Source of the DNA: Mustelus asterias
Taxonomy: Eukaryota
DNA length: 64,000 bases
Assembly (NCBI RefSeq): GCF_964213995.1
Contig: NW_027590120.1
Location: 124,001-188,000 of the forward strand
Direction: 5' to 3'
Shown here: in pieces, positions 34,107 through 56,301 of the stretch
Layout: each line of letters opens with the position of its first letter
How positions within the stretch are numbered: position 1 is the stretch's first letter
Translations under genes and position numbers: made by a program
The notes under the pieces: model-generated
Databases searched by the model: none
Seen by the model: the letters and a program-made list of their open reading frames with translations, nothing else
Told to the model about the DNA's origin: nothing

Positions 34107-34145
34107 CCCAGCGATAGGGACCAGGGCTGCCCCCGGACAAGAACA
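34107..34145 (+). other. VH 23-RSS with a mutated heptamer
   Basis: CCCAGCG + 23 nt spacer + ACAAGAACA. Confidence 0.85.
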
Positions 34146-34497
34146 GTTCGAGAAGGAATTTAACAACTTCCAACACAACCTGAAATTCAGTACCTCTTGT
34201 ACATGTAATATTAACTGCAATGATCTGAACCAGACAACTAGCTGATTCTTACCAAACTAACACAGCGAAAATGTAACGGTAAAACGTAACAGACAAACAT
34301 AGAAAACGGGGTTGGACTGTGGCTGTGGTTATATTTACTATTGACACTTTCAACACTTCCAGACCTGCAAATAATGCTTATTTTAATATTTCTGACTTTG
34401 TGATCGATAAACTGCTGCCTAACTGATAAATGAGATCAGAAATAACGTTCTATTTGAAGTGAATAGTGAGCGGCAGGACTGAACAGAGAGTGAGTGC

Positions 34498-34576
34498 AGT
34501 TTTTGTGCGGGTGTGTGTCACTGTGATATGTTGGGTCGAACTGGCAGGCACAGCTGTTACCGTCAATACAAAAACC
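34498..34576 (+). other. IGHD: Single DH segment (34526-34548) flanked by 12-RSS on both sides
   Basis: AGTTTTTGT-12-CACTGTG | ATATGTTGGGTCGAACTGGCAGG | CACAGCT-12-ACAAAAACC. Confidence 0.92.
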
Positions 34577-34893
34577 CCTCTCAGCACTTACTGATTGAGG
34601 CTGGATCAGTGTCACTTCTATAATCCAACTATAATTTCAGTATAGTACTCTCGATGATCAGCATTGCCCGAATGGCAAGAATTAAAATGCAAACTCGATG
34701 ATAATTGTTCGATTATCAGTTGTTGTTTTCAATAACATGTTCATGTGTTACTCTGTGAAATATAAATCATTAGGGTCATTTATGAAGAGCGAAAGGCATC
34801 CACAAATACAAATATAATTTTTTGAAGCTTCATTGATTTACTTGCCTTGTGCTTTGTGAATATTTAAAATAATGGTCTATTGTGTTTAGAGCA

Positions 34894-34932
34894 TGTTAAT
34901 GTATGGTGCAGCCCAGAGAATGTAACACAGTG
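34894..34932 (+). other. JH 23-RSS with a degenerate nonamer
   Basis: TGTTAATGT-23-CACAGTG directly before JH. Confidence 0.85.
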
Positions 34933-34979
34933 ACACTTCCCATCCTGGGGACAAGGGACCACGGTGACGGTGACTGCAG
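34933..34979 (+). CDS. IGHJ: JH segment
   Basis: HFPSWGQGTTVTVTA G|GTAAG, containing the WGxG motif. Confidence 0.95.
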
Positions 34980-52900: not shown

Positions 52901-53089
52901 ACGCATACACACGCAATAAGAGTGTCTTTAATAAATAAGCATAGACTTCACACAAACATAATGACAGACGAATAGCATATCCTACTGTCATTATAAGCAT
53001 AGATTTCACATAATAATGCAGTCATACAAACATAATGACAGACGAATATACTATTCGTCTGTCATTCGGATATTCGTTCGACCAGAGGC

Positions 53090-55280
53090 CCAAACATCCT
53101 GCACCACCGGTACACACATATCAAACATACCTACTGCTCTTTCGCCCGCCCACACTTTGGCAATTCAGACCATAAGGCTGTGCTCCTGCTCCCGACTTAC
53201 AAGCAAAAACTGAAGCGGGAAAATCCATCAAAGAAAGTCGTGCAATGTTGGTCTGAGGAATCGAATGATCTTCTACGGGGCTGCTTGAAGTCAGTGGACT
53301 GGTCAGTATTTAAAAACTCTGCGACCAGCCTGAACGAGTACGCCACGACCGTAACTGGCTTCATTAGTAAGTGTGTAGAAGACTGTGTGCCAAAGAAGCA
53401 AATCTGTGTGTTCCCCAACTGGAAACCATGGATGAACAGGCATATTCACTGCTTGCTGAAGTCCAGGTCTGAGGCGTCCAGGTCAGGCGACACTGACCTA
53501 TACAAGAAAGCCAGATATGATCTAAGGAGATCCATCAAAGATGCCAAAAGACAATACCGGATCAAGCTAGAGTCCCAGGCTAGCCAAACCGACCCCGCCG
53601 ACTATGGCAAGATCTGCAAGGCATAACAGGCAACAAGATGAAGGCATGTAAAATCGCTGGCACCAACGCAGCTCTTCCTGATGAGCTCAATGCATTCTAC
53701 GCCCGCTTTCAGCAAGAGGTCAGCGAGAGCATGTCCTCCACCCTGGAAGCCCTGGATGAACCTATATCTGGGGTCACAATTGCAGATGTCAAGGCGGTTT
53801 CTTGAAGGTCAACCCATGGAAAGCAACTGGCCCGAATGGGGTACCCGGATGAGCACTCAGATCATGTGCAGATCAGCTGGCGGGGGTATTTACAGACATT
53901 TTCAACCTCTCTTTACAACAATCTGAGGTCCGTATCTGCTTCAAGAAGACGACCATCATCCCAGTTCCTAAGAAAAACCAAGCAGCGTGCCTTAATGACT
54001 ATCACCGGTGGCTCTGACATCCATCATTATGAATTGGTCCGAAAGGTCAGTCATGGCACGAATCAATTCCAACCTCCCGGACTACCTGGATCCACTACAG
54101 TTTCCCTACCGCCACCAGAGGTCCACAGCAGATGCCATTTCCATGGCCCTGCACTCAACCCTGGAACATCTAGATAACAAGGACACCTATGTCAGACTCC
54201 TATTTATTGACTACAGCTGAGCCTTCAACACTATTATTCCCACGAAACACATCTCCAAATTCAGTGGCCTGGGCCTCAGCACCTCCCTCTGCGACTGGAT
54301 CCTGAACTTCGTAACACACAGACCACAATCAGTAAGGATAGGCAACAACACCTCCTCCATGATCATCGTCAACACCGTTGCCCAACAAGGCTGTGTTCTC
54401 AGCCCCCGACTATACATCTTATACACCTATGACTGTGCAGCCAAAATTCCCTCCAATTCGATTTTCGAGGACACCATCGCAGTGGCTCGGATCTCAAACA
54501 ATGATGAGATAGAGGAATGATAGAGAATCTGTTGAACTGGTGCGGCAACAATAATCTCTCCCTCAATGTCAACAAAATGAAGGAAATTGTCATCGACTTC
54601 AGGAAGCGTAAAGGAGGCTATGCCCCTGTCTACATCAAAGGGGGCGAAGTAGAAAGTGTCAAGAGCCTCAAGTTTGAAGGTATCCAGATCACCAACAACC
54701 TGTCCTGGTCTCCCTATGCCGGCACTATAGTTAAGAAAGCCCACAACACCTCTACTGTCTCAGAAGACTAAGGAAATTTGGTATGTCAGCTACGGTTCTC
54801 ACCAACTTTCACAGATGCATCATAGAAAGCATTCTTTCTGGTTGTATCACAGCTTGGTATGGTTCCTGCTCTGCGCAAGACCGCAAGAAACTACAAAAGG
54901 TCGTGAATGTTGCCCAATCCATCACAAAAACCAGCCTCCTTTCCATTCACTCTGTCTACTCTTCCCGCTGACTCAGAAAGCAGCCAGAGTAATTAAGGAC
55001 CCCACGCACCCCGGACATTCTCTCTTCCACCTTCTTCCTTCGGGAAAACGATACAAAAGTCTGAGGTTACGTACCAACCAACGCAAGAATACCTTCTTCC
55101 CTGCTGCTGTCAGACTTTTGAATGGACCTACCTTGCATTAAATTGATCGTTGTCTACAACCTAGCTATGACTGTAACAGTACATTCTGCACTCTTTCGTT
55201 TCCTTCTCTATAAACGGTATGTTTTTCTCTGTATAGCGCGCAAGAAACATTACTTTTCACTGTATACATGTGACAATAAT
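53090..55280 (+). mobile_element. Rex1/Babar-like LINE (end of endonuclease through RT to 3' tail), decayed
   Basis: [44 protein letters not shown]; (TAAAT/CAAAT)n tail. Confidence 0.9.
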
Positions 55281-56034
55281 AAATTAAATCAAATTAAAAT
55301 AAGTATGTATACAGAGACGCAGGCACACGAATGCACGAATCAAAAGCCACAGGCACATGAATATGCATATTAACACTCATACGCACATAGCAACTCATAA
55401 ACAAAGTGGAATGCAGGCCATGAGATGCTCATGCACCCATACATAAATTCTAAATCTTAACCACAAATGGTAGGCAATGAATGAAAGTAAATTTGAAACA
55501 TAACCTTTTCAATGCAAATATCCTCCGACAACTGTCCCTAAAATACAATCAATCCACAAACACACTGTAGCACTGTACGTAATGAGAAACTGTCTGGAAG
55601 CTAATGATGTACTGAACATTTCCAACATAAATAAAGAATATGAGAAATCACATCTTTAAACAGCAACATTCACTGTTTAAAGATCTGAAAACACTTGTTA
55701 AATAAATCATGATTGATCAGTGAACGTTCCTCGATATCAATCATAATATTCTTCAATAAGAGATCTGCAAAATTGTTCGAAAATGAACTGATACCGAAAA
55801 TAAAATTGAGTGTTTTCTGGCACACATTGATGAATAAAAACGAAGAACAGTTGTGAAGGTAATGACAGAGTTATGTTACTTAGTGTCACTAGCTTAATAG
55901 TTGAGATATTTTGAAAAATAAATTGCAAAATAAATTAATCGCTTAAGAAAGAGAAGAGGGCATATAACATTACCAATAGGATTCTCTAGATCAATCAAGT
56001 AATCTAAATTTATTTCCTTGTCTCCGGCCCCTAG

Positions 56035-56162
56035 ACTTCACAGACGACATCTGGATTGAAGCCAATGAGGATGATAACGGCAAAATCTGGACAACCGCTT
56101 CCACATTCATCGTCCTGTTCTTCCTGAGCATGTCCTACAGCGCTGCAGTCACTCTGGTGAAG
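56035..56162 (+). CDS. IGHM: IgM TM1 exon
   Basis: ag|AC FTDDIWIEANEDDNGKIWTTASTFIVLFFLSMSYSAAVTLVK|GTGAGA, with the CART motif. Confidence 0.96.
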
Positions 56163-56292
56163 GTGAGATGATTCAATGGACTCACACTTCAAACCGGCAG
56201 AAAAATCTCTCAATAATTCACTGATTAAAAACACTAACATTAATGTCCCAGCTCAAAAACATCGGCTTCATTATTGTGTCTCTCTTTTACAG

Positions 56293-56301
56293 ATCAAGTG
56301 A
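56293..56301 (+). CDS. IGHM: IgM TM2 exon (IK-stop)
   Basis: tttacag|ATC AAG TGA; AATAAA at 56720. Confidence 0.9.
   Translation: MK

Follow-up and report, generated by a model that had tools for sequence, protein, structure and literature searches.

Can an immunoglobulin M (IgM) heavy-chain cluster that has apparently lost the means to join its own variable (V) segment be kept for the sake of its constant (C) region? The question is raised by a cluster in the shark Mustelus asterias, whose 3.68-Gb genome contains many IgM clusters. The cluster lies in a stretch of 64,000 nucleotides (hereafter the window; contig NW_027590120.1, positions 124,001 to 188,000, or G000:C88:124001-188000), which together with 60 kb on either side holds a single V segment and a single set of IgM C exons (Table 1). 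A preliminary description had noted crippled recombination signals in front of an intact C region, and had proposed that the cluster survives as an acceptor for joined V, diversity (D) and joining (J) segments of other clusters, with a very young pseudogene as the alternative. We consider it somewhat better than an even chance that the cluster is a recently disabled, part-joined member of an old IgM subfamily, whose coding regions are still undamaged.

The heptamer of the V recombination signal sequence (RSS) does read CCCAGCG, as had been described. CCC is present in all 4 assembled copies of the cluster that include V, and CACAGCG with the nonamer ACAAGAACA in 28 of the 28 other split V segments examined (26 loci and 2 whole clusters, some of them near-identical). 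A genome-wide pattern scan tied to the conserved spacer, which would miss V signals with other spacers, finds 51 CACAGCG sites and 4 C[CGT]CAGCG sites, every one of the latter being CCC and belonging to the window's subfamily. The site is spanned by contigs from all 4 DNA read runs, which derive from at most 3 samples of 1 study and may include the sample used for the assembly; two of the contigs show 0 differences, and an alternative letter is not listed for 34108. The runs behave as DNA, as their contigs run across the leader intron. A check of the heptamer in reads and other samples, which the preliminary description had proposed, thus gives the same base in contigs of up to three samples, and a sequencing error or a lone or rare allele is ruled out within the data examined (read contigs and all V copies). 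No further CAC is found within 34090-34135, and the three other RSS heptamers of the cluster keep their CAC start, leaving the V heptamer alone without it. Mammalian RAG hardly cleaves a signal in which any one of the first three heptamer bases is changed (PMC2875030; also PMC9723617).

Between V and J there is one D element flanked by a 12-RSS on each side, a D1-D2 join that the preliminary description overlooked. Its 5′ part is D1-like and its 3′ part D2-like, while the inner RSSs and ~390 nt are absent compared to two-D paralogs. The layout is V23-12DD12-23J, and two separate D segments (V23-12D1-23-12D2-12-23J) are not found. Since the join is the same in 4 of 4 copies, it is a germline feature; in addition, read contigs of runs X1 and X2 span it without differences. 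Germ-cell rearrangement has been described in sharks (PMC2193156), and the CG between the two parts fits N addition, though later substitutions could yield the same; we infer that the join is of RAG origin. DD-to-J joining obeys the 12/23 rule with CAC at both ends, and V-to-DD joining requires the CCC signal. With D1 and D2 fused, V is left without a bypass. Another violation of CAC in the genome is the D1 3′ heptamer CATAGTG in L030 (G000:C127:490.9 kb), where V-to-D2 joining could bypass the signal. Given that CCC is fixed, that CAC mutants are nearly uncut by mammalian RAG and that the D segments are fused, the cluster is probably unable to build its own VDJ, and to this extent the earlier proposal stands.

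It does not stand for the J signal. The JH nonamer indeed reads ACATTAACA on the recombining strand, but it is not crippled, as the textbook form ACAAAAACC is present in 0 of 23 split paralog JH signals. These have ACAATAACC (16), ACAATAACT (4), ACACTAACC (2) and ACAGTAACT (1), as counted by eye over L005-L030, where 3 of 26 loci have no split J. At positions 4 and 9 the window's nonamer departs from ACAATAACC, the family norm, but paralogs vary at these two positions as well; the JH heptamer retains CAC.

The remainder of the gene is intact, as was reported: the leader, V, J, CH1-4, secretory tail and both transmembrane exons (TM1 and TM2) are open and in phase, with GT-AG splice sites and AATAAA signals present. 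V retains both Cys and Trp, all hallmarks of an IgM cluster are there (leader, V-set domain, J, four C1-set exons, a tail with a penultimate Cys, TM exons), and the closest named proteins in a protein search are the IgM heavy chains of Triakis and Scyliorhinus. The V exon ends 3 nt earlier than in paralogs (ACATAT vs. GCAAGAGAC; final codons TGT ACA TAT). An open-and-shut RAG joint at this end was considered and rejected, as the 4 substitutions and 3-nt gap within 16 nt fit the background (the V-D interval diverges by 24-26%). Two other routes to a usable V were also rejected: an alternative CACAGCG 160 nt downstream of V has a weak nonamer and its joint would run past an in-frame stop, while candidate sites for splicing V directly to J or CH1 (judged by eye) are weak, out of phase or would remove a Cys.

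How old is the cluster, and when was it disabled? Five copies of its C region are found at 99-100% identity, on contigs C88, C143 and C971 and twice on C71 (C971 ends before V), and all five belong to the CCC-carrying set. They fall into two types: C88, C143 and C971 are 99.7-99.9% alike around the gene, and the C71 pair, 99.9% alike, is ~1.3% from the first type. Overall, copies are 0.1-1.7% apart, and the unit they share spans at least 90 kb. J is broken in 1 of 4 copies, its Trp codon being a stop in the one at C71:4.98 Mb; C is open in all 5. Beyond these copies, C matches drop to 77-82%, and no relative with a canonical V signal is seen among the best 40 of the 234 candidates scored. Over CH1-4 the window's protein is 78-81% identical in amino acids (aa) to paralogs, 78% to Triakis scyllium IgM (P0001) and 79% to the IgM of the catshark Scyliorhinus torazame (P0002). 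The Triakis chain nests in the genome's main subfamily (100/97), apart from the window's lineage, and a tree that joins the window to the main subfamily and leaves Triakis outside is rejected (approximately unbiased test, p-AU 0.0002). Judged by these comparisons, the window's C lineage is old. Protein searches find no orthologue in a database that holds few shark IgM sequences. Dating by the epaulette shark rate of 7e-10 per generation (PMC10587355) would put ~2e8 generations on the stem of the lineage, which is implausible; hence, only relative ages are used here.

A codon branch model over 13 clusters gives a C stem omega of 0.40 (95% profile 0.25-0.65; p 0.001 vs. 1) against a background of 0.39, with 0.77 for a frameshifted control group. 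For the V framework the stem omega is 0.26 (p 0.005 vs. 1; background 0.42), and the stem length of the promoter is 0.032 vs. 0.14-0.25 in neighbouring and intervening non-coding DNA. By these estimates the promoter, V framework and C are all under purifying selection along the stem, and the whole gene would have worked for most of its history. As the V side is as constrained as C on the stem, the loss appears to be recent; the neutral (dead) part makes up at least about 2-8% and at most about 43% of the stem.

After the copies split, the V side acquired 2 silent changes, 1 J stop and 3 replacements, the latter at positions that do not vary among 24 other V sequences. Set against a constraint of omega 0.39 the V-side coding changes give p 0.007, and neutrality fits them. 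The promoter differs by 3 changes between the window and the C71a copy, where 0.2-0.5 are expected at stem-level constraint (p 0.002-0.016). Thus, the promoter, V and J look unconstrained after the split. On the C side there is no disabling change, the chance of a still-open C under neutrality being 0.26. When all changes are counted, CH1-3 has 5 replacements (3 of them private to one C71 copy), against expectations of 4.8 under neutrality and 1.8 under constraint, and the likelihood ratio of a dead C to an acceptor is 2.1-3.6.

Several points weigh against a cluster that is simply dead and drifting. Changes common to both C71 copies include 3 C replacement events, whereas 10.9 are expected if C is fully neutral (p 0.005, or 0.016 with a tandem change counted as two), and with only these shared changes the likelihood ratio falls to 0.16-0.26, i.e. 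~4-6:1 for a constrained C. CH4 and TM1 together have 1 event (6.7 expected if neutral, 2.5 if constrained), and the within-family omega of C is 0.35 (0.15-1.0). Exonic changes private to one C71 copy are oddly numerous (5 where 1.1 are expected) and may reflect errors or variants not under selection. The post-split tests are post hoc and draw on fewer than 20 changes, and the copies may be alleles or haplotypes rather than paralogs. Furthermore, the V signal is likely to block V joining only insofar as the mammalian RAG data extend to shark RAG, and by a rough count the essential CAC is only ~5% of the disabling targets in which a first hit could fall. On these data, post-split selection on C appears equivocal.

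The chief alternative is that of the preliminary description, namely that the V side is dead and the distinct Cmu is kept by selection to receive, through the J-C intron, the VDJ of other clusters. We regard this as unlikely. It would suit an old and distinct C lineage without a close canonical-V relative among the best 40 candidates scored, a C that is open in every copy beside a J that is broken in one, and shared post-split C changes that fit an omega of 0.39. It also has a precedent in the nurse shark, where V regions can be expressed with the C of other clusters and switching runs both ways over >120 kb without switch (S) regions, probably via AID (PMC4279169, PMC5192425). However, with the V framework and promoter as constrained as C until late on the stem, a long V-less history is argued against. 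The post-split contrast between V and C is non-significant (Fisher p 0.23), and the private changes in CH1-3 are all replacements. AID targeting presumably requires a promoter. The one here drifts after the split, and it is the sole promoter reported for such clusters (PMC5192425). Doubtful as well is the fuller form of this proposal, in which a C lineage about as old as the catshark split is no longer V(D)J-competent in any copy and persists as a downstream-type isotype reached via inter-cluster switching only; if true, such an isotype would stand, as a natural intermediate, between the clusters of sharks and the class switching of tetrapods.

Rather improbable, in our estimate, is a leaky or tolerated signal, where shark RAG would cut CCCAGCG often enough for a low-use functional gene, aided by the nonamer and by two-step V-DD-J joining. 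In its favour are an intact V nonamer, intact signals on both sides of D, an open V that retains both Cys and Trp, a DD without stops in any of the three frames, and the wide variation of shark RSS cores among paralogs. Against this, each of the 28 other split V signals has CAC, mammalian RAG requires the first three bases (PMC2875030), and the post-split changes in V, J and the promoter look unconstrained. Finally, that RAG joins the V of another cluster to the DD-J-C half, or that V serves as a conversion donor, is very improbable: the consensus 12-RSS upstream of DD is free and the clusters lie in one region of a chromosome, many of them on contig C71, but nurse shark partial rearrangements stay within their own cluster with at most 1 exception in 97 (PMC2435157), and no spare V is present in the window or in the 60 kb on either side of it.

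Returning to the recently disabled cluster, the course of events may have been as follows. RAG would have made the DD join in the germline, and the cluster would then have been functional as V23-12DD12-23J. The change of the V heptamer from CAC to CCC would have come late, prior to the copy split, leaving D-to-J joining possible and V-to-D joining not. The unit may afterwards have been duplicated or kept as divergent haplotypes, and would now be drifting; its C may perhaps be taken up occasionally by inter-cluster switching, without selection maintaining C for that purpose. The genome also contains frameshifted and stop-bearing IgM clusters, and it has >50 rearranging clusters besides several broken ones. 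Death that begins at the signal is unusual, yet expected now and then in such a genome.

Known shark clusters offer several comparisons. The window shares with nurse shark inter-cluster switching a distinct Cmu, a multi-cluster locus and a J-C intron without an S region: the first 3 kb of the intron are 74-78% identical to most paralogs, and a mammal-like AGCT-dense switch region is not seen in it (0-5 AGCT per kb). It differs in that none of the clusters described in the available portions of PMC4279169 and PMC5192425 has a non-rearranging V. The elasmobranch IgM minicluster (V-D1-D2-J-Cmu) is represented in the nurse shark by G1-G5 and by the pseudogene groups G6-G8 and G2C (PMC2435157); like it, the window has a leader, 23-RSSs at V and J, four C1-set domains, a secretory tail and TM1/TM2, and in both cases divergent subfamilies occur in a single genome. 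In contrast, the window has one fused D instead of two, and its V heptamer is without CAC in all readable copies. As in part germline-joined shark IgH clusters (PMC2193156, PMC5192425), a coding-end join is inherited and the inner signals are lost; here, the join is D1-D2 and is combined with a V signal that is probably dead. V-DD-J has been reported as a somatic intermediate (PMC2435157). The monotypic VH family lambda-1113 of the horn shark (PMC2191167) likewise combines a rare divergent V with a CH1 of its own and a changed RSS layout; unlike the window, with its fused D1-D2 and a V lacking CAC, it is expressed and has retained two D segments between which the intervening sequence is inverted, a trait not found in the window. 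A literature search that did not extend to the original articles on switching and on IgM subfamilies in sharks, or to supplements, gave nothing relevant on a non-rearranging C acceptor or on the use of non-CAC heptamers; RSS variants may be tabulated in the supplements to PMC2435157 and PMC12227049.

The coordinates of the cluster are given in Table 1.

Table 1. Layout of the IgM cluster in the window (window positions).
Feature	Coordinates	Strand	Remarks
VH promoter and 5′ untranslated region	33435..33634	+	200 nt preceding ATG; TATA-like TATTTAAA near 33536
Leader exon	33635..33680	+	open, GT donor; same in 3 other V-bearing copies
VH exon, divergent V family	33805..34106	+	Pfam V-set; 66-74% aa to paralogs
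VH 23-RSS	34107..34145	+	heptamer CCCAGCG at 34107-34113, 23-nt spacer, nonamer ACAAGAACA
5′ 12-RSS, D1 origin	34498..34525	-	consensus heptamer; identical in clusters C306, C127, C124
Fused D1-D2 coding segment	34526..34548	+	ATATGTTGGGT-CG-AACTGGCAGG; open in three frames
3′ 12-RSS, D2 origin	34549..34576	+	CACAGCT, 12 nt, ACAAAAACC
JH 23-RSS	34894..34932	-	heptamer CACTGTG; nonamer (recombining strand) ACATTAACA, inside the range of the family
JH segment	34933..34979	+	HFPSWGQGTTVTVTA
J-C intron	34980..44104	+	
Cmu1 exon	44105..44405	+	C1-set, open, splice sites in phase
Cmu2 exon (SPAWNANG)	44612..44926	+	C1-set, open, in phase
Cmu3 exon (DSYQNAD)	45605..45913	+	C1-set, open, in phase
Cmu4 exon and secretory tail	47955..48349	+	tail end Cys-His-stop; AATAAA at 48377 and 48386
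TM1 exon	56035..56162	+	open, same in all copies
TM2 exon (Ile-Lys-stop)	56293..56301	+	AATAAA at 56720
More-alike block, window vs. C71 copies	33400..46700		0.66% vs. 1.6-1.7% in flanks

The block in the last row of Table 1 runs over 13 kb from the promoter to CH3 and is 2.5 times less diverged than its flanks (Fisher p 2e-11, non-CpG changes), with boundaries picked after the profile was seen. Such mosaic divergence points to recombination or conversion, and the block is possibly a conversion or crossover tract. A 4.6-kb retrotransposon of the type without long terminal repeats (non-LTR) lies in the J-C intron of both C71 copies (L072:2119-6747) and is absent from the window (37385-37396). 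Its first open reading frame (ORF1) encodes 314 aa (GDSL esterase-like) and ORF2, of 810 aa, an endonuclease and a reverse transcriptase; near the C306 cluster there is a piece with 99% identity. In addition, ~16.4 kb (window 1-12617 and 3.8 kb before it) is present in C88 and absent from C143 and both C71 copies. The start of CH3, DSYQNAD (45605-45625), is without the N-terminal Cys of paralogs (QCPD, HCTD, TCTN, SCTN, ACTN), which we take to be a possible inter-chain disulfide site. Apart from the cluster itself, a lone TM1 exon lies 41 kb upstream of the window start.

Part-joined clusters are common elsewhere in the genome. These include V-DD-J (C91, C306), VD-D-J (C143:0.29 Mb), V-D-DJ (C124, L010/L011), VDD-J (C105/C597, C270/C128) and VDDJ (C71:7.3 Mb). 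The last of these, an out-of-frame VDDJ, was considered as a second family with a dead V and an intact C, and was rejected: its relatives on C270 and C128 have the form VDD-J, with a 12-RSS. In this family (G000:C71:7.317 Mb, C270 and C128; L079, L146, L149) the usual TM1 acceptor AG is changed to AT, and an in-frame AG lies 9 nt downstream. A pseudogene IgM group, L036-L040 (C71:8.30 Mb, C444, C88:1.62 Mb, C160, C447), has CH4 stops, with a CH1 frameshift in three, and its C71 copy is without most of the region from V through J. Stop-bearing VH relics lie 8-12 kb upstream of IgM clusters at G000:C124:517.8 kb and C143:300.6 kb. The genome-annotated catshark proteins P0004 and P0006 have similar complete VDJ junctions, which suggests a conserved germline-joined IgM; their V shares an LDWLL motif with the window V.

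Taken as a recently disabled cluster, the locus would represent an ordinary birth-and-death event at an early stage, in which an old IgM subfamily was silenced by one base. Because its V is likely non-rearranging, any transcript with the CH1-CH3 of this cluster, which are easy to recognise, would indicate switching, foreign-V joining or a leaky signal. The locus is thus a natural test of inter-cluster switching outside the nurse shark and of the tolerance of shark RAG for a non-CAC heptamer. If its C were selected on its own, the cluster would amount to an extant stage on the way to isotypes dedicated to switching.

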